Positions 2,196 to 10,458 of a stretch of DNA of 10,458 bases are shown here, in pieces. A model generated the notes under the pieces. It saw only the letters and a program-made list of their open reading frames with translations. It was not told the DNA's origin and did no database searches. The position numbers were made by a program, and so were the translations under genes. Numbering within the stretch: position 1 is the first letter of the stretch; every line of letters begins with the position of its first letter. Source of the DNA: a virus (taxonomy: Duplodnaviria > Heunggongvirae > Uroviricota > Caudoviricetes); the IMG/VR virus record IMGVR_UViG_2585427789_000026. One strand, 5' to 3'.

Positions 2196-4781
2196 CTACT
2201 CTATCTCTTTTGCTTTTTTAATTATCAATTCAAGCTCTGTTAAACGAGACTCAATGCGTTCACACCTTCTTCGCTGGAATGCAGCCTCCAACCACAAACA
2301 TTCATCTGGACGCAATCCCCAACGCTCACCAGCATGTACAACCAGTTCCGTGTCACCAGTATCGTATTCTTCAAAGTATTCGTGAACGATGTCTTCTCCT
2401 TCAGGGGATTTAGCTATAAATGACACCTTGCGCTGTGCCATTACAGGTTGGTACTCATCATCCCATTTATCATGACATAGCAAGCCAAATCTTGTTCCAT
2501 CTATCCCCTTTGCAAGAAACGCATCTCTTACCTGCTGTGCAATTGCTCCGAAATGCCAACGAGCAGTATCCGAACCTTTAGCCTTAATATCGGACAACCA
2601 CTGGTAAACGATAATATTTACGTCACCCCATGCGTCAAGAATTGCATCCTGATCCACCTCCATGATTTCTGAAAGTTGCTCTACTGTCAGTGGCTTTGTT
2701 TTCAATGTCTGGTCTGAAGTATTTATTGCCCCATTAGTTGCATATACTTGCGTCCACCGTTTAGATGATGTCCCACATGATGACGTATTATCTTTATTAG
2801 CACTTATATAGCCATTAACCTCCGCTGACTGACCGATATACGAATATGAAGATGTTGATAAGGGAGATTTAAATATCCATTGAGCATTGGTAAAGTCATA
2901 AATACCGGTATCACCTTTTTCACTAACATGAAAAGTTACATTCCGTAACGTATTCTTTGCATCATAACGGGCGGCTTGTGTTGTTGCCCTCGAAACAGTG
3001 AATCCTTTGTCATCAAGGTTTGCCTGCTCTATGACTTCACCACCAGGCATAATTTTACCAAGGCTTAACAAACCAGAGTTAGTGACAATATCATGGGTTG
3101 AATCAATGATAATACCAGGCTGATTTCTTGATGTTGTTTTTACATGCATTACCTGTTGTGGCATTAATGTGTAAAATGTAGTTTCTCGCCCACTATCACC
3201 ATCTGGTATGCCATTTGTATTCCCCATTACAAGGTCATACCCACCTGCAATCATACGGAAAAACATTGCTTCTGGTTCATATGTAAGATTGCTAACATCT
3301 GGCGTTCCGGTATCATTTGGATCTGCTATTTCATAGGCTCTTCCTGCACCTGCCTGTATTTGCTGCACCCCAAGATAAACACCATCAAGTGTGTACTGAT
3401 GCAAATATTTTCTGGTTGAAGAATATGCAGATCCAGCCTGACAAAAATAAATAGCAGTACCGTCACACGCAACTGTTTGCATATCCCTCACAAAATCGGC
3501 AATTTCAAATTCAAAAGTTGCTTCATTACGATAATCGTAATTGTACGCCTGCGGGTTAATAAATTTGCTGGTATCAAATACTTTTACATAATAGCGAATT
3601 TGATCTGGTGTTGATGGGCTCTCACCAGGGCCAACATAACGTTTTGCTGTAGTAATCAGCCATCGACTCATAGGGTCGGTGCATAAAACATTTACCTGAT
3701 TCTCGTAACCATCTTCCCATATGAGAAAAAACTCTGGTTCAATTTCACCACCATCAGTAGGGGTGAATCTGGTGATATACTTTGCGCGATCCTCTCCTTT
3801 AGCTGTGCCAGCTAACCCCCATATCTGTAACTGGCCTCTTGTGTTACGAAAACCAACGCGCCCTATGGTTAAACCAAGACATTGATGTCCTAATTCTCTA
3901 CTACCTTTAGTCTCCCAAAGAGGAGTTAACTCTTCATTCCCAAACCAATTATAAGCAACAACTTTATTAACTTCGTCACCAGAACTAACGCTGCCACTCA
4001 CATTTACCAAGCAATAAAGAACACTGTCATAATAATCAAGAACAGCACCCTGTATGACAGTATTTTTAATTGTTGCCAGTCGCAACCCTGACTTAACATG
4101 ATTAGGAGTAGAAGGTCTGAAACCTGTATACATCCCCTTTTTTATAGTTTGTATTCTTTTTTCAGTAAAATCAGCATCTGGCAGTAATCGATTCTCTGTG
4201 CGAAAATAGCCATTTATATACTTATTTCCATCAAAAACTTGATCTGTTATATATGTATTACCCCTTAGATCAACAATCCTTCCTGTGATTTGTTTTTCTA
4301 ACTCTTGAAAAGATAATGTGTCATCGGTGATGCCATCACCTTTTGCTCCCCATCCGCGAGGGTCAGCGTCATCACGCCACCGAGACATCTGCAATTCATG
4401 ATATTTTTTAGCACCTTCCGGGTCTTCTAATTGTTGTCTTAATTGGTCAGGATCGTACTTAAGCACATTCGGAAAATAGAACTGCTGCGTACCATATGCA
4501 TCGTAAACAGCCATAGAATGGCCTTGCACGGTAACGAATTTGGAAATCTGTCCGTTGTATACCGGGTATCCAGCAGCATTGATAACGATTGGCTGTGGCA
4601 CCTGAACATAAGTACCATCTTCTCGTTCCAGATATACTGGAATCTGGTTTTCTGGATTTACCGGATCTGTGTCAATCTTACCGATATAAATTTTTCCATT
4701 TGCTACGGTTTTAAAAGAGCTAGCCATTGTGAAGAGTTGCGATGGCATCCCAATTACAACATTTGGGGTTATATCAGGCAT
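2196..4781 (-). CDS. Phage tailspike: P22-type N-terminal head-binding domain, pectate-lyase-like beta-helix central domain, C-terminal intramolecular chaperone (peptidase S74-like) domain
   Basis: N-terminus [17 protein letters not shown]...[27 protein letters not shown]...[15 protein letters not shown]...NVLKYDPDQ aligns closely with the P22 gp9 / HK620 head-binding domain as recalled. Central [12 protein letters not shown] motif is typical of pectate-lyase-superfamily depolymerases. C-terminal ~173 aa begins SDQTLK (Ser codon 2715-2717), fitting the S-x4-K self-cleavage signature of tail-fibre chaperone domains. Start chosen at ATG 4779-4781 (AGGA 8 nt upstream); the ORF-track start at 4874 has no ribosome-binding site. 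Confidence 0.85.
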
Positions 4782-5197
4782 ATTAGTCATCCTGTTTGAA
4801 GATTTAGATATTGAAGAAAACGGAATGACTGCAGACAAAGATGCAATTGTTTTGAAAAATAACCTTCTATTCATTTAAAAACCATGCAACATGAACAAAA
4901 CGATTATTTTACAATACTCAAGAATCTTGATCAACAGGCATATTATTTATGCGCTTAATGCGTCACTTACAAAAATAAAAACAAGTAATACCTTTATTCC
5001 TATCGTCCATGATTTTTATTTTCAAACATTATTAAATAACAATTCCTATTTATAATATCTGTCATTTAATTTGCTCCAGATACAAGGAATCGCCGCAGCA
5101 TGGCTACGGTGAGCATTTGTTACATACCGAAACGGTACGATTGTTGATTTGTACAGTAGGTTTTACGATGCCATTCCACCCATTTGGTGAGGCATTG

Positions 5198-5455
5198 ATG
5201 ATGTACAGCAAATACGATGAGGCGCAGTTCCACTTGAGGCTTACGCACGAGTTGCACGCTAAGATTAAGCAGCGTGCAAAAATGAATAACAGGTCTATCA
5301 ATTCCGAAATTGTGGCTACGATGGAAGAATCACTCTCCAAACCATCACCTGTAAGCGGGTATCGTGATGAAGAAGAGAGGCTGGACTCATTAATCTCGGA
5401 ACGAGTAAAAGAAGTTGCGGCTGATATCCTTAGAAAAGAAAAAACCCGCGATTAA
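5198..5455 (+). CDS. mnt: Mnt-like ribbon-helix-helix repressor
   Basis: Translation MMYSKYDEAQFHLRLTHELHAKIKQRAKMNNRSINSEIVATMEESLSKPSPVSGYRDEEERL... aligns along its length with P22 Mnt as recalled (…FNFRMP…GRSMNSE…SKPSPVTGYRNDAERL…). GGTGAGG lies 5 nt upstream of the ATG at 5198; a second ATG follows at 5201. Confidence 0.8.
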   Translation: MMYSKYDEAQFHLRLTHELHAKIKQRAKMNNRSINSEIVATMEESLSKPSPVSGYRDEEERLDSLISERVKEVAADILRKEKTRD

Positions 5456-5463
5456 GCGGGTTT
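5442..5463. terminator. Bidirectional intrinsic terminator between convergent mnt and the antirepressor operon
   Basis: Perfect 8-bp stem aaacccgc / gcgggttt with 6-nt loop gattaa, flanked by an A-run upstream (a U-tract for the minus-strand transcript) and ttt on the plus strand. It overlaps the mnt stop codon and lies 7 bp from the stop of the 73-aa ORF. Confidence 0.55.
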
Positions 5464-5469
5464 AGTTGG

Positions 5470-5691
5470 TTAGTTATCAAAAAGTCCGTACGTTTCTTCT
5501 TCTTCAGGTGTAAGGGGAAGAATCTCTACTCTATCTATAGATACCTTTTCAATGTACCCATGAGGCCTACTTAAAATTAAAGCTCTCTCATGCCACAGAA
5601 CTCCAAGAATGTGATACCTTCCAGCATCGCCTTTTACCCTGGCTCTTCCTTTGATTCTTGGCGGCATAATGCCATATTTTTTCTTTGCCAT
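5470..5691 (-). CDS. Hypothetical 73-aa protein (basic N-terminus, acidic C-terminus), translationally coupled to the upstream antirepressor
   Basis: Its ATG (5689-5691) overlaps the TAA stop of the upstream gene (5691-5693) as TAATG; it ends just before the bidirectional terminator. No family recognised. Confidence 0.5.
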   Translation of the reverse strand: MAKKKYGIMPPRIKGRARVKGDAGRYHILGVLWHERALILSRPHGYIEKVSIDRVEILPLTPEEEETYGLFDN

Positions 5692-6416
5692 TATGCAACA
5701 TTACTCCCATGAATAAGGTGTTGTAGTGCTTTAACACCTTCCTCATTGTAGCGGAACGCTTCCACCTGTTTGCTGGAATGCGCAGATTTATCCAGGAAGA
5801 ACTTCCCGTACTGCTCAGTTTTGAGGTTGTTTGCGTTAGCAATGCGACCAATCTTGTTGGCCGTTACTCCAAGCTGCTCTGCAACCTCCCCTGCTGAGTA
5901 GTAATGCTCTTCTATTGCCGGAAGAGGTATTGCATTAAAACCAACGAGCGGGTTGATTATACTTGCTGCCGCTGTCTGCTTTGCCTCCGGCGCAAGATTT
6001 GGCATCAGATCGAACAGATTGGTAACAGCTTCAACCGTCATTTTCAATGTTCGCGCTTGACGATACTCAACAAGTCCACTCGCTGATTTACCGCTTTTAA
6101 TGTGCGCTTCCTGCATACTTTCAAGTTTGTCTACAAGTGTTCGGCGAACTGCTTTAGATTCGCGAGCAGCAACACGAAGCGCCTGCTTGATAGTCATGGA
6201 GATAACATCAATGTCAGCCCCGTTTTTCCGACCTACACTTTTTGTGTAGGTCTCGCCTTCCAATTCATCCTCAATTTTCTCGATGAATTTGTTGTTACGT
6301 ACTGATGGCTCTCCACATAACTTGCGAGCTTCATTAACCATCATCAGAAGACTTTGGCTGTCAATGGTTTTATCCGTGACAACGGATCCGATGTTTGCTA
6401 CATTCTTAAAAGTCAT
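5691..6416 (-). CDS. Phage antirepressor / regulatory protein, Rha-like N-terminus with KilA-C (ANT) C-terminal domain
   Basis: C-terminal YYSAGEVAEQLGVTANKIGRIANANNLKTEQYGKFF...FRYNEEGVKAL fits the KilA-C antirepressor domain pattern; N-terminal ...DSQSLLMMVNEARKL...VRNNKFIEKIE resembles Rha/ORF6N. Start chosen at ATG 6414-6416 (MTFKN..., AAGGA about 7 nt upstream) rather than the ORF-track TTG at 6503. Confidence 0.65.
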   Translation of the reverse strand: MTFKNVANIGSVVTDKTIDSQSLLMMVNEARKLCGEPSVRNNKFIEKIEDELEGETYTKSVGRKNGADIDVISMTIKQALRVAARESKAVRRTLVDKLESMQEAHIKSGKSASGLVEYRQARTLKMTVEAVTNLFDLMPNLAPEAKQTAAASIINPLVGFNAIPLPAIEEHYYSAGEVAEQLGVTANKIGRIANANNLKTEQYGKFFLDKSAHSSKQVEAFRYNEEGVKALQHLIHGSNVA

Positions 6417-6485
6417 TAGGCATTCCTTATGTGGTAGTAAGGGTGTGACATAGGCCGCCAGCAGCACACTGGCGGTTTTCTTTTG
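6411..6485 (+). ncRNA. Putative sar-like antisense RNA covering the start codon and ribosome-binding site of the Rha/KilA-C antirepressor
   Basis: Candidate promoter GTGACA (6376-6381), 17-bp spacer, TACATT (6399-6404) would start transcription near 6411 and end at the terminator above, about 70 nt. The geometry mirrors the P22 sar antisense RNA in the arc-ant region. Confidence 0.35.
6454..6485 (+). terminator. Plus-strand intrinsic terminator in the intercistronic region between the two antirepressor genes
   Basis: Stem ccgccag (6455-6461) / ctggcgg (6469-6475), 7-nt loop, followed on the plus strand by ttttcttttg (6476-6485). The minus-strand side has no U-tract. Confidence 0.55.
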
Positions 6486-6503
6486 CGCAGTCCGGCGCAC
6501 CAA

Positions 6504-7142
6504 TCAATGAATCCATTCCTCGCCGCGAAGTTTTGCCAGCATTGGCTGAGCGTTCTTTACGACAAAATTGTTGGTATCAAGATTCTTCATTTCACGAAGA
6601 AGTGATTTCTTGGTTTCTTCTGACATGTAGCGAGTCTCATATGCAATATCGTAAATCCTTCCTGAAAGCTCAGAACCAATTTGCTTCATTCCTGGGTAGA
6701 TGTGTTTGCACATTTGTTGACTCTTCTCCATCCACAATTGTAAGTAGCAGAGATTAACCAGCTCTTCGTCAGTGAACTGTTTTGCAATCGGTGAGCATTC
6801 TGCCTGCCGATCCAAAATATCCAGCACCCAGCGGCGGAACTCTTTGGCCTTGGGCGTAGAAGCAAACATCGCCACCAAGTGAGCGCCTCGGAGTGAGTAA
6901 ACTCTGACCGATTTGTTACGTAAGCTATTGTTTATTCCGTTGACCTTCATATTGAGGGTCAATGACATTGAGTCGGAAAATTCGTCAGCATTACGGGCAT
7001 AAATTTGGCTGATGGCATCAGTTTTTTTATAGCCGAGAGCCTTAGCTAGTTCGGTGGAGGTAAACCAGATAGACCCGCCCTCTGTTACAGGGTTAAAAGT
7101 GAATCCTTGGAAGTTATAATCTGATTTTGCTACAATATTCAT
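6504..7142 (-). CDS. Phage antirepressor with Bro-N / AntA-type N-terminal domain
   Basis: N-terminal ...FQGFTFNPVTEGGSIWFTSTELAKALGY...VYSLRGAHLVAMFASTPKAKEFRRWVLDILD matches the Bro-N / antirepressor N-domain pattern. Start chosen at ATG 7140-7142 (MNIVAKSDYNFQ, AAGGAAA 6 nt upstream), downstream of the arc stop; the ORF-track start at 7247 overlaps arc. Confidence 0.65.
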   Translation of the reverse strand: MNIVAKSDYNFQGFTFNPVTEGGSIWFTSTELAKALGYKKTDAISQIYARNADEFSDSMSLTLNMKVNGINNSLRNKSVRVYSLRGAHLVAMFASTPKAKEFRRWVLDILDRQAECSPIAKQFTDEELVNLCYLQLWMEKSQQMCKHIYPGMKQIGSELSGRIYDIAYETRYMSEETKKSLLREMKNLDTNNFVVKNAQPMLAKLRGEEWIH

Positions 7143-7220
7143 GTTAGTTTCCTTGAGTACGGTTACTGACATAGAGGCCCGGTTTGTGTTCGCGCACTGC
7201 CGGGCTTCACTATTTTTATT
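7143..7220 (+). ncRNA. Putative second sar-like antisense RNA covering the ribosome-binding site of the Bro-N antirepressor
   Basis: Candidate promoter TTGGAA (7107-7112), 18-bp spacer, TACAAT (7131-7136) would start transcription at about 7143, beside the Bro-N start codon, and run about 70 nt to the hairpin and T-tract at 7174-7220. Same geometry as the 6411-6485 unit. Confidence 0.3.
7174..7220 (+). terminator. Plus-strand terminator-like hairpin with T-rich tail at the arc 3' end, upstream of the Bro-N gene
   Basis: GC stem gcccgg (7177-7182) / ccgggc (7200-7205) with extension, followed on the plus strand by ttcactatttttatt. The minus-strand side has no U-tract. Confidence 0.4.
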
Positions 7221-7389
7221 GGATGACAACATCGCCCTTTGCCTCAAGTTTCATTAATAACTCCATTCGATAAGCTATCTCTGCCTGAATTGACCTATGG
7301 CATCTTTTTGCTGATTCGCGGATATGTGAATCAACCTTTTCTGTAAAACGAACCTGACGCGGCTTGATGGAAGATATCTTTTCAGTCAT
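7216..7389 (-). CDS. arc: Arc-like ribbon-helix-helix repressor (57 aa; not in the supplied ORF track)
   Basis: Hand translation of the complement strand: MTEKISSIKPRQVRFTEKVDSHIRESAKRCHRSIQAEIAYRMELLMKLEAKGDVVIQ-stop. It aligns with P22 Arc as recalled (…PQFNLRWPREVLDLVRKVAEENGRSVNSEIYQRVMESF…). AGGAG lies 6 nt upstream of the ATG at 7387-7389. Confidence 0.7.
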   Translation of the reverse strand: MTEKISSIKPRQVRFTEKVDSHIRESAKRCHRSIQAEIAYRMELLMKLEAKGDVVIQ

Positions 7390-7435
7390 TATGCACTCCT
7401 GTTTTTGAAAAACTCATAATCTCACTTTTTGTAGT

Positions 7436-7467
7436 TTGATTATTCACTCACACTCAGTATGAGTCAA
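7436..7467. promoter_or_regulatory. Overlapping divergent promoters with candidate operator (palindrome ACTCA-gta-TGAGT plus ACTCA repeats) between arc and the CI-like gene
   Basis: Minus strand: TTGACT (complement of 7462-7467), 17 bp, AATAAT (complement of 7439-7444), reading into arc. Plus strand: TTGATT (7436-7441), about 16 bp, TATGAG, a weaker promoter reading into the CI-like gene. The 13-bp palindrome at 7452-7464 overlaps both; further ACTCA half-sites at 7412 and 7445. Confidence 0.4.
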
Positions 7468-7488
7468 TGAATTTTTTATGGTGAACTA

Positions 7489-8130
7489 ATGAATTTTGAC
7501 GATCAATTCCCATCAAGAGTATCTCTGGCAAGACAGTCCAGGGGTATGACGCAGGCGCAGTTGTCAAAATTAGCTGGTGTTGTTCAACGTCAAATAGCTG
7601 CATACGAGGGTGGTGAGGCTAAACCACGGCTTCGGGTATTGCAGGCATTAGCCAACGCATTAGGTACTACGGCTGAGTGGTTAGCTCTAGGTGAAGGTCA
7701 GGGTCCGGGAACAAAAAACGTCATGCCTGACGTTCTGGTAAAGCAAATACCAATTCTCAAACTAGATGAAGTTATGCATTACCTAAACACAGGTGAACAT
7801 TCATCGTCTAGATTTCATCCTGCAATATACAATGTTGGTGACTCTGCATTTGCATTGACTATTGAAGGTGAAGCTATGACTACAAGTTCAGGTATTAGCT
7901 TTCCCAGAGGATCGGTTGTCACGTTCAGCCCTCTAGTAAAAGCTAAAAGCAAAGATTATGTAATAGCATCATTGGATAAAGAGCAAATATTGAGCTTCAA
8001 ACAGGTTTACATTGGTGAAATAGAGACAAACCTAGTATCCCTAAACCCAATGTATCCTAATATTCTTGTTAGAAATGAAGATGTTAGTATTTTGGCAACC
8101 GCAGTTTACCTTGAAATCCCGTTGCTTTGA
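7489..8130 (+). CDS. CI-like repressor (XRE-type HTH plus LexA/S24-like C-terminal domain) with catalytic Ser and cleavage site replaced
   Basis: N-terminal HTH (…GMTQAQLSKLAGVVQRQIAAYEGG…); C-terminal GDSAFALTIEGEAM…SFPRG…LSFKQV…LNPMYP aligns with lambda CI GDSAFWLEVEGNSM…SFPDG…FTFKKL…LNPQYP. The G-x-S-M nucleophile position reads Ala (GCT 7873-7875) and the Ala-Gly scissile position reads Asp-Glu. Confidence 0.8.
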   Translation: MNFDDQFPSRVSLARQSRGMTQAQLSKLAGVVQRQIAAYEGGEAKPRLRVLQALANALGTTAEWLALGEGQGPGTKNVMPDVLVKQIPILKLDEVMHYLNTGEHSSSRFHPAIYNVGDSAFALTIEGEAMTTSSGISFPRGSVVTFSPLVKAKSKDYVIASLDKEQILSFKQVYIGEIETNLVSLNPMYPNILVRNEDVSILATAVYLEIPLL

Positions 8131-8190
8131 TATCCTTTAGGAGGCGACACATTATCATCTGGTATCCTGCTCAAAACTAAGGAGGTTGGT

Positions 8191-8379
8191 GTGAAGAAAA
8201 AATTTGTAAACGTTGCAAAGTGCGCAATTTTTATATTTTTTATGACCTTTTACGGATTTAGTGCCGGAGAAGGTTTCGATCGTGATGCCAATGCATTCAG
8301 TTTCTTTTGTCTGTCTATAGTGGTCATAATTGTATGGGTGGAATTAAAGCAAACATTGTTTCATGTGCTAAGGAAATAA
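8191..8379 (+). CDS. Hypothetical small membrane protein (62 aa) downstream of the CI-like repressor
   Basis: GTG start 5 nt after a strong TAAGGAGG (8178-8185). Lys-rich N-terminus followed by two hydrophobic segments. Same strand as the CI-like gene, 60 bp downstream. Confidence 0.5.
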   Translation: MKKKFVNVAKCAIFIFFMTFYGFSAGEGFDRDANAFSFFCLSIVVIIVWVELKQTLFHVLRK

Positions 8380-8396
8380 CCATCCATGGCATTTAG

Positions 8397-8931
8397 TCAC
8401 TGCTGTGTTGCCTCAGTGGCAAGCAGCGGTCTGATGGCATTTGCAGCGTTACTTAATGCTCTTTCATAGGCTGGCGTTCCTGCTTTGGTGTTTGCCAGAC
8501 GTAAGAGCGCATTCCTGGCCATAGGGCTTTCATAAACCCTCGACATAAGGCCAATCCCTGTTTCCCCAGCCAATAGCGCGCCTCCGGTTTTTAGGTTACC
8601 AATAACCCTTACCAAAGGCGCGAGTGTCATGCCAGTCTTCGTCACAACATTAGCCTCAGATGCTCTTTTGGTAGCATCGAGAATAGATAACATCCCCTCT
8701 ATCTCTTTTCCGTTCTTCCCACCAAATACAGTTTTAAACACCTGACCATTTGCTTGTTTTTGCAGCTTGCCAAGCTCGGTCATCATTTTCTGAGGGCTGT
8801 CACCTACCTTGTCAGCTATTTTGCTGATATATGCCGCCCTTAGCATGTCTTTACCTTTTTGATCGAGTTTCCCGTACAATCGAGCTATATCTGACCCATA
8901 TTGTCCATACACAATGGTATTTACAGCCTCG
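8397..8931 (-). pseudogene. 3' fragment of a phage late gene (putative DNA-ejection / internal virion protein, gp16-like by position), truncated by IS66 insertion
   Basis: The reading frame stays open upstream of the listed GTG (8912) straight into the IS66 end, with no convincing ribosome-binding site. The protein is low-complexity and Ala/Gly/Lys-rich. The gp16 assignment rests only on position relative to P22 gene order. Confidence 0.4.
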
Positions 8932-10458
8932 GTAAGCGGCTCGCCAGAACCGTATTGATATTTACTGAGAGGTCAGATCAACTTTCCAGGGCAACAGATC
9001 GCGTACCCGGTTTGCCGGCCAATCCTGGATATGCTCAATGACGTAACGCAGCCATTTTTCTGGTTCCACATTGTTCAGACGGCATGTGCCGATCAGCGAG
9101 TACAACACCGCCGCATGTTCGCCACCGCTGTCGGAACCCGCGAACAGCCAGTTTTTCCGGCCTACGGCCACTCCCCGTAAGGCGTTCTCTGCGATGTTGT
9201 TGTCGATTTCCACCCAGCCATTACTGCAGTACACGTTCAGGCCATCCCACTGTTTCAGCAGGTATGCGAACGCTTTTGCCGTATCCGAGTGACGCGACAG
9301 TGTTTTCATCTGAGTCTGTATCCAGTCATACAGTGACTGCATCAGTGGCGCGGCTCTGGCTTTTCTTGCCGCCAGACGCTGTTCTGCTGAACATCCCCGG
9401 ACTTCTGCCTCGATGGCATACAGTTCACCGATACGCTGCAGGGCTTCCGTGGTGATGTCGGTGGGCACTCTTGCATGCACATCGTGGATTTTTCTCCGGG
9501 CATGAGCCATACACGCGGCTTCCGTTATTCTGCCGGATTCGTATAACACCCGGTAACCACCGTAAGCATCGGCCTGAAGCACACCGCTGTAACCGGCCAG
9601 ATGATTTTGTGGATGGATACCTTTCCGGTCCGGTGAGTACGCGAACCAGACCGCCGGGGGCATTTCCGAACCGGCGTTACGGTCATCACGGACGTAGACC
9701 CACAGCCGGGCGGTCCGGGTTTTACCGCTGCCCGGCTCCTGGACCGGGACGGGGATATCATCAGCATGGACTTTACCGGGCATCAGCACATACTGGCGCA
9801 GGACGTCATACAGCGGCTCCAGCAGTTCAGCAACGGCACCTGTCCAGCGCCCCAGCGTGGCGCGGCTCAGCTCCACGCCCTGGCGACGGTATATTTCTGA
9901 CTGGCGGTATAACGGCAGATGGTCTGCATATTTCCCGGTAACAACATGGGCCAGAAGCCCCGCTCCGGCATAACTGCGTGCAATGGGTTTTGAAGGTACT
10001 GTTGCCTGCACGATATGGTCGCACCGACAACAGGCCAGTTTCGGACGTTGTGTTTCGATAACCTTAAAGGCGCTGCTGATAAGCTCCAGTTGCTCTGACA
10101 CATCACACCCCAGAGGACTGAGGTCACCACCACAGGCCGGGCAGCATTCCTCTTCCGGCCGGATGACCCGGGTTTCACGGGGAAGTGAGGCCGGTAACGG
10201 TTTACGGGCTGAAGACTGGCGCAGGGCGGATGGCAGTACCGGGTCATATTGCTCACCCAGCGTTTCCGCCATTTCTTCCTGAAGTGCGCTGATTCGCTCC
10301 TGTGCTTCCTGTATCTGCCGTTCGGTTTTAGCGCGAAGTTTTTCTGAGCTTTTACCGAACTGCATGCGCTGCAGTTTCGCAACCAGCGCCTTCAGCCGGT
10401 TGATTTCGGAAGCATAAGCCGCCACCCGCTGTGAGAGCAGGCGGTTGTATTTCGCCAT
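8932..10458 (-). mobile_element. IS66-family insertion sequence, right end, continuing beyond the window
   Basis: GC-rich block beginning GTAAGCGGC at 8932, consistent with the GTAA terminus typical of IS66-family inverted repeats as recalled, 30 bp from the transposase stop. Sharp composition change from the AT-rich phage sequence. Confidence 0.75.
8962..10458 (-). CDS. tnpC: IS66-family transposase (TnpC/orf3), N-terminally truncated by the window edge
   Basis: 498-aa ORF ending ...[11 protein letters not shown], with leucine-zipper-like N-region, CxxC...CxC zinc motif (CPACGG...CCRCDH) and a conserved catalytic core. The M at 10458 corresponds to an internal position in full-length IS66 TnpC as recalled, so the true start lies outside the window. 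Confidence 0.9.

Follow-up and report, generated by a model that had tools for sequence, protein, structure and literature searches.

A conserved 62-codon gene in the sieA slot of P22-like prophages: a candidate superinfection exclusion protein

Is the 62-codon open reading frame that follows a CI-like repressor gene in this stretch of DNA a real gene and, if it is, could its small membrane protein protect a lysogen from incoming phages? The initial annotation of the stretch, which is 10,458 nucleotides long and is referred to here as the window, had described a 62-residue protein with two hydrophobic segments, encoded on the same strand after the CI-like gene and behind a strong Shine-Dalgarno sequence. 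That description is borne out. The frame, which we call orf62, lies at 8191-8379 on the plus strand with a GTG start and a TAA stop. Its hydrophobic segments span approximately residues 5-25 and 35-50 (Kyte-Doolittle means over 15 residues reach 1.9 and 2.8), and the Shine-Dalgarno sequence TAAGGAGG stands at 8178-8185, 5 nt before the GTG. The repressor gene (7489-8130) is on this strand too and ends 60 nt before the frame.

The prophage and the gene upstream of orf62

The window is a piece of the E. coli chromosome at the dacD locus together with a degraded P22-like (Lederbergvirus) prophage. The chromosomal gene dacD occupies positions 1-1173 on the minus strand. On that strand the prophage carries a tailspike gene (2196-4874) and, directly downstream of it, an ORF for a 95-aa hydrophobic (membrane) protein of phrog_1443, a family of unknown function (1908-2195); related genomes label this ORF only as a hypothetical protein. 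An Arc/Mnt-like gene adjoins the tailspike gene on the plus strand (5117-5455), and a 73-aa ORF lies between it and two tandem antirepressor-type genes on the minus strand (5691-6503 and 6504-7247), which differ from one another (phrog_1726; Bro-N and P22AR_C). Upstream of the antirepressor-type genes is a 57-aa RHH gene (7216-7389, minus strand), whose end overlaps the second of them at its longest-ORF start (TTG, 7247). With its antirepressor pair, RHH gene and separate Arc/Mnt-like gene, the immI region of the window is more complex than that of P22.

On its other side, orf62 faces a gene for a gene 16-type ejection (DNA transfer) protein (8397-8912, minus strand; phrog_770 'DNA transfer protein', E = 5e-61), and a 17-nt spacer, CCATCCATGGCATTTAG (8380-8396), separates the two convergent stops. 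The prophage is defective because an IS66-family element, whose transposase gene (8962-10458, minus strand) runs off the window, cuts gene 16 and leaves only its last 171 codons. The C-terminus of gp16 that is preserved in the window is 100% identical to that of the isolated phage JEP4 and 56% identical to that of P22, and the DNA at 7400-8400 is 100% identical in JEP4 and in several E. coli chromosomes. Despite the IS66 damage, the repressor gene, the antirepressor genes and orf62 show no difference from this viable phage (100% identity).

The repressor gene upstream of orf62 (7489-8130, plus strand) has Pfam matches to HTH_3 and Peptidase_S24, and had been described in the initial annotation as CI-like. 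It is not the main repressor of the prophage: JEP4 has an ordinary, separate immC region with c2/cro/c1 at 28.0-29.3 kb, and the repressor in the window is therefore a second one, not that of immC. Its place is in the ant moron (immI), at the position of mnt in P22, and it is divergent from the RHH and antirepressor genes. Villafane et al. (2008, PMC2629481) gave the name 'ant moron' to the region between genes 16 and 9 and described its genes as a fast-changing set that is not involved in assembly and whose functions are not identical. The same repressor (accession WP_001008290.1) is common to the relatives of the window and to E. coli HS, where it precedes SieA type B. In an alignment with lambda CI the catalytic Ser ('EGNSMT') is replaced by Ala ('EGEAMT') and the catalytic Lys is kept ('FKK' / 'FKQ'); with the Ser lost, the repressor may be unable to self-cleave on RecA activation.

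There is no terminator-like site between the repressor gene and orf62, and read-through may therefore add to the expression of orf62 in the window. To that extent the co-transcription with the repressor that the initial annotation had proposed is possible, but it is not a defining property of the gene, as other phages have a different 5' gene or none. In the window and in JEP4 the 5' neighbour is the HTH-S24 repressor, while in Salmonella it is a 161-aa lipoprotein with an LAGC lipobox (phrog_6067; L011 5483-5968) and in Serratia a Rap1a-domain protein of the T6SS immunity-like kind (L007 5644-5991). Genes on the opposite strand precede orf62 in phiv205-1 and in E. coli YY76-1. A 95-aa lipoprotein is encoded next to orf62 at another locus (L053 252-539), and a 77-aa protein with two transmembrane (TM) helices immediately upstream of it at a further one (L056 4741-4974). 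All of these small envelope-protein neighbours, the 161-aa, Rap1a-domain, 95-aa and 77-aa proteins, are uncharacterised. The 161-aa Salmonella ORF was considered as a possible SieA and rejected, since it has no similarity to SieA and is a lipoprotein.

The 3' side of the gene is far more constant. Here the neighbour is gene 16, save in one lineage where a lipoprotein gene intervenes, and even the remote relatives of orf62 (32-44% identity) all adjoin the 3' end of gene 16. In three metagenomic lineages of such remote relatives, orf62 is the sole gene between gene 16 and the tailspike gene, and a repressor operon is therefore not required.

The orf62 family and its predicted protein

The DNA of the window is AT-rich and holds 103 ORFs of at least 30 aa. 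A 62-codon ORF is not beyond chance in such DNA, and so the case for a gene rests on comparison. Each of the 53 copies collected from the loci retrieved is intact. The close relatives, which come from Salmonella enterica and Serratia fonticola (77-81% identity), are all exactly 62 aa long, with no indels, and pairwise dN/dS is 0.14-0.42, with 12, 6 and 15 variable sites at codon positions 1, 2 and 3. The E. coli and Salmonella copies start with GTG and those of Serratia with ATG, and a Shine-Dalgarno sequence stands 5-9 nt upstream of the start in every lineage. Between E. coli and either Salmonella or Serratia the gene is 87-88% identical at the DNA level, whereas identity in the same comparison is 32-48% over the 60 nt upstream and 27-64% towards gene 16; being better conserved than both of its flanks, orf62 is a discrete conserved module.

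More distant members extend this picture. A profile search of 1.84 billion cluster representatives returned only 12 orf62 clusters, 7 of which were absent from the first search, and the proteins of these 7 new clusters are 61-66 aa long after the trimming of one over-called N-terminus. Identity among the remote relatives falls to 32%, with those at 32-52% differing by 1-4 residues in length, and the pattern of charge and hydrophobicity is kept even though the DNA has diverged beyond recognition. Judged by these comparisons of sequence, orf62 is a real gene under purifying selection.

The gene is found in 89 of 5,426 complete E. coli genomes and also in Salmonella and Serratia, and a scan of 185,579 species-representative genomes gave one locus only, in Serratia fonticola. 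All the genomes in which the family has been seen are those of P22-like phages, with the gene always adjacent to ejection gene 16, and orf62 is a horizontally mobile gene of P22-like (Lederbergvirus) prophages. Its GC content of 34%, against 40-47% in the neighbouring genes, is a moron-like composition. It is almost never called by NCBI's PGAP or by those who deposit phage genomes: the three isolated phages that carry it (JEP4, phiv205-1 and UPF_BP1) all lack an annotation for it, as do 37 of the 40 E. coli genome rows among the matches listed.

Database searches assign orf62 to a family, phrog_21338, which is of unknown function; the match is full-length (residues 1-62 on a 62-position profile, E = 5.3e-45). 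A Pfam search with all 13 family members found no match at a threshold as loose as E = 10, and no PADLOC defence model matched orf62 at E = 0.1. A literature search on the orf62 peptide, JEP4 and hkcB returned no functional data and no paper that names the family.

AlphaFold2, run on an alignment of 13 sequences, models the protein as a helical hairpin of residues 2-25 and 30-61 (pLDDT 86 for the best model and 68-72 for the remaining four). A Foldseek search of PDB with this model gave only helical-hairpin matches, none of them significant (all E > 2). K10, F14, M18 and W49 are invariant across the family, and in all 13 members the net charge runs from +2 to +4 at the N-terminus, through -1 to -3 in the loop, to +1 to +3 at the C-terminus. 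By the positive-inside rule, this conserved charge pattern would place both ends of the predicted hairpin in the cytoplasm (N-in/C-in) and its short acidic loop in the periplasm, and the models suggest that the protein resides in the membrane.

The sieA slot and its shared leader

In P22 the gene order is gene 16, sieA with its own promoter PsieA, orf59a, mnt, arc, ant and gene 9. There sieA is convergent with gene 16 and ends 22 nt from the gene 16 stop; orf62 is likewise convergent with gene 16 and ends 17 nt from its stop. By gene order and alignment, orf62 occupies the P22 sieA slot. The spacing is 17-18 nt in most of the loci examined, the exceptions being 10 nt in L051, a 4-nt overlap in L056 and an extra gene in between in L053-L055. 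No intrinsic terminator was found between the convergent orf62 and gene 16. The orf62 stop is followed in E. coli and Salmonella by a spacer motif, (TAA/TAG)CCATCCATGGC (window 8380-8396), which also follows the unrelated 77-aa two-TM gene that lies upstream of an orf62 relative in metagenomic locus L056 (4974-4990); the motif CCATCCATGGC may be a module-boundary sequence.

The likeness to sieA extends to the DNA in front of the gene. A sieA-type 5' leader, which includes the Shine-Dalgarno sequence, covers 8160-8190 on the plus strand, and window positions 8160-8193 match the P22 sieA leader, Shine-Dalgarno sequence and GTG at 33 of 34 nucleotides (97%; blastn). In alignments the similarity between orf62 and P22 sieA ends at the start codon. 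The leader of approximately 31 nt and the GTG are in fact nearly invariant before six unrelated ORFs, orf62 among them, with divergence setting in right after the GTG. The leader motif, TGGTATCCTGC..AAAACTAAGGAGGTTGGTGTG, is present at 8160-8193 in the window and at loci L004, L016, L057, L060, L062 and L063. Besides orf62, the leader fronts SieA type A in P22, an HkcB-like 107-aa protein with one TM helix (phrog_5962; gene 14 of epsilon34), a 106-aa protein with one TM helix (phrog_10450; E. coli HB37), a 75-aa protein with two TM helices (phrog_7294; E. coli 13TMH22) and SieA type B of prophage HS1 in E. coli HS, where the 3' end of the leader is slightly altered and the start is ATG.

These leader-fronted ORFs fall in separate PHROG families, and hhalign finds the 75-aa protein unrelated to orf62. 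The cassettes of phrog_5962, phrog_10450 and phrog_7294 have the same leader, GTG and place beside gene 16 as orf62 and, like it, encode small membrane proteins, but their sequences are unrelated to it. The shared leader and GTG look like a recombination or cassette junction, as far as alignments can tell; we found no earlier description of an invariant leader and start codon as such a junction in the part of the literature covered. No significant RNA structure was predicted in the leader (z = 0.7), and the Shine-Dalgarno sequence is free of significant sequestering structure. A second Shine-Dalgarno-like sequence, TAGGAGG (8139-8145), is followed by a mini-ORF of 9 codons that starts with ATT and whose TAA runs into the real Shine-Dalgarno sequence. 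This arrangement (8139-8175) was rejected as a gene and is probably due to chance, the Shine-Dalgarno-like sequence reading TAGGAAG in E. coli HS (HS1).

A consensus scan places a promoter-like site at 8127-8158 on the plus strand, with TTGATA (8127-8132) and CATTAT (8150-8155) 17 nt apart, 9 of 12 matches to consensus and an overlapping TATCAT at 8153-8158. It overlaps the repressor stop codon and corresponds in position to PsieA as annotated in P22 (31-61 nt upstream of the GTG), and 8127-8155 may serve as a promoter. Window positions 8085-8159 are identical at 74 of 75 nucleotides to the DNA upstream of HS1 sieA in E. coli, and SieA type B of HS1 is itself 28% identical to P22 SieA (E = 8e-25). 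In single copy and together with the DNA just upstream, both sieA genes give full exclusion: that of P22, with 85 bp, acts against P22 itself, and that of HS1, with 106 bp, against P22 and four Salmonella phages of the P22-like group (Leavitt et al., 2024, PMC10883804). The same study proved that SieA types A and B block DNA injection and that SieA interacts genetically with gp16 and gp20; among the results reported there, escape mutations lie in the C-terminal parts of these two proteins (Leavitt et al., 2024, PMC10883804).

The initial annotation had called this a classical position for an exclusion gene. The position stands, through the P22 sieA slot, leader and GTG, but the analogy with lambda cI-rexAB on which it was partly based does not, as the repressor is not that of immC. 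SieA (PF26849, phrog_7745) and orf62 share the slot between genes 16 and 9, convergent with gene 16 and approximately 20 nt from its stop, as well as the leader, Shine-Dalgarno sequence and GTG, and SieA type B in E. coli HS even has the same upstream repressor. Both are inner-membrane proteins, by prediction in the case of orf62, which is likely to be expressed from the prophage promoter just upstream. They differ in that SieA has 164-212 aa and several TM helices and orf62 has 62 aa and two; the earlier remark that orf62 is far smaller than SieA or Rex is correct.

Nor does any search relate the two proteins. BLASTP against P22 SieA gives E = 0.27, orf62 has no PF26849 match and its PHROG is not phrog_7745, and hhalign against an alignment of 10 SieA sequences, type B included, returns a probability of 0.5%. 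[quoted passage not shown] A reduced form of SieA was considered, as BLASTP had aligned orf62 residues 11-32 to residues 132-158 of P22 SieA, the region of the motif, and was rejected on the hhalign probability of 0.5%.

None of the orf62 loci tested, which represent approximately 8 independent contexts, has SieA type A or B within 5 kb. This agrees with the two genes being alternative occupants of one slot, from which such mutual exclusivity would also follow trivially. The gp16 C-termini encoded beside orf62 are 100%, 58% or 55% identical to that of the window, or unalignable. With these types so varied, orf62 is not tightly co-inherited with one target allele, and a tie to a single gp16 C-terminal type was rejected.

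Candidate functions of orf62

The reading that we put forward is that orf62 is a prophage exclusion protein acting at DNA entry from the sieA slot. It is argued by analogy with the occupants of that slot, and we give it a probability of roughly 40%. The slot would be the first gene leftward from the sieA-type promoter and leader, beside the 3' end of gene 16, and orf62 would be one of several interchangeable, unrelated membrane-protein cassettes that can fill it. We infer that orf62 is expressed in the lysogen, probably at a low and constitutive level from its own promoter, with read-through from the ant-moron repressor gene possibly adding to this in the window. The protein would insert N-in/C-in, with an acidic periplasmic loop of approximately 10 residues, and, like the unrelated SieA, would hinder the insertion or opening in the inner membrane of the gp16/gp20 conduit of incoming P22-like phages, thereby keeping their DNA from the cytoplasm. 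During lytic growth, the late transcript that runs from gene 16 to the tailspike gene would be antisense to orf62. Counting against exclusion, a 62-aa hairpin with a periplasmic loop of approximately 10 residues offers little surface for contacting a periplasmic conduit. A more specific proposal is that the orf62 hairpin alone is a new minimal superinfection exclusion protein unrelated to SieA, which would block P22-like podoviruses where their DNA passes the inner membrane, with the leader and GTG forming a cassette site at which at least six unrelated small membrane proteins are swapped; this we hold still more tentatively.

Among known systems, the closest in size is Imm of phage T4 (83 aa), which is also very small with two hydrophobic stretches and is annotated as leaving superinfecting DNA in the periplasm; a protein of such size and architecture can therefore block DNA entry. 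T4 is a lytic myovirus, however, and Imm acts early in infection on T-even phages, whereas orf62 is carried by prophages; hhalign detects no homology between the two (probability 0.3%). HK97 gp15 is a prophage moron product and predicted inner-membrane protein that blocks the DNA entry of related phages, according to the passages of Leavitt et al. (2024) in which it is cited. Like gp15, orf62 is a prophage moron gene for a predicted inner-membrane protein, and the two are likened here by description. Gp15 is said to have been described as a moron-encoded exclusion protein by Cumby et al. in 2012. Lambda RexAB and P22 SieB are also expressed from the prophage and protect the lysogen, but their genes belong to immC or adjoin it, while orf62 has its place in the ant moron, next to a second repressor gene. 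RexAB is moreover a two-component system of much larger proteins, and no PADLOC or Pfam match connects RexA, RexB or SieB with orf62. The arrangement is not of the cI-rexA-rexB type either, as orf62 is not downstream of the immC repressor and has family members with no upstream repressor at all.

Position in the slot alone fixes no function, because the ant moron also holds genes with other likely roles, among them those for the Rap1a-domain protein, lipoproteins and HkcB. The strongest rival to exclusion is an envelope moron with another role in lysogenic conversion, whether as an orphan immunity protein against a membrane-targeting toxin (a bacteriocin or T6SS effector) or, in the manner of other small membrane proteins of bacteria, as a small modulator of a transporter, a sensor kinase or some other host membrane protein. 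The Rap1a domain is that of a T6SS immunity family, and the Serratia orf62 directly follows the Rap1a-domain protein; a lipoprotein precedes orf62 in Salmonella and another lies beside it in L053; and such a role would suit the absence of homology between orf62 and known exclusion proteins, as well as the non-identical functions of ant-moron genes (Villafane et al., 2008, PMC2629481). We nevertheless consider it somewhat less likely than exclusion, as a gene that benefits the host would be expected in other mobile contexts and orf62 is found only in P22-like phages beside gene 16, no toxin partner lies near it, and the only functionally characterised occupants of the same slot are exclusion proteins.

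Damage to the membrane by the peptide itself, as an abortive-infection effector or a type I toxin-like or holin-like protein that kills or arrests the cell when de-repressed or infected, takes up the second option of the initial annotation (abortive infection); it is less plausible again, and we think it improbable. The product is small and very hydrophobic, its gene is AT-rich with a strong Shine-Dalgarno sequence, and convergent transcription of gene 16 could supply an antisense RNA in lytic growth. Type I toxins have a single TM helix, however, and orf62 has two, together with a conserved acidic loop and polar ends. Among the features looked for in a type I toxin-antitoxin system, no minus-strand promoter-like site was reported within or beside orf62, an Rfam scan of window positions 5000-9000 gave no match, the leader is unstructured, and neither an antisense RNA gene nor a sensor partner was found. 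A toxic product also fits poorly with the intactness of all 53 copies behind an unsequestered Shine-Dalgarno sequence, and SieA, in the same slot, affects growth little. That orf62 is a chance ORF, its DNA conserved because it flanks gene 16 on the 3' side, marks a recombination boundary or regulates the late operon, is scarcely credible: similar-sized chance ORFs are common in the window and PGAP and depositors almost never call this one, but its dN/dS, the freedom of close relatives from indels, the switch between GTG and ATG, the Shine-Dalgarno sequence in every lineage, conservation above that of the flanks, and charge and hydrophobicity that outlast DNA similarity all speak for a gene.

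Some of what bears on exclusion by orf62 is already known, namely that a prophage moron with an inner-membrane protein occupies the sieA locus, and the rapid flux of the region was described in 2008. The orf62 family itself is uncharacterised, far smaller than SieA and unrelated to it, and represents a conserved small gene overlooked by annotation. Should orf62 have no exclusion phenotype, it would be one more uncharacterised moron, of local interest only. The shared leader suggests a defined and tractable cassette site for envelope functions of prophages. The channel that the ejected proteins of podoviruses form through the inner membrane is poorly understood, as is the way in which SieA blocks it (Leavitt et al., 2024, PMC10883804). 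If the exclusion reading is true, a protein of 62 residues would allow that step to be probed with a far simpler tool than SieA, and, on the broader proposal of swapped cassettes, the slot would be a hotspot of diversity that arises from an arms race for control of the ejection-protein conduit.
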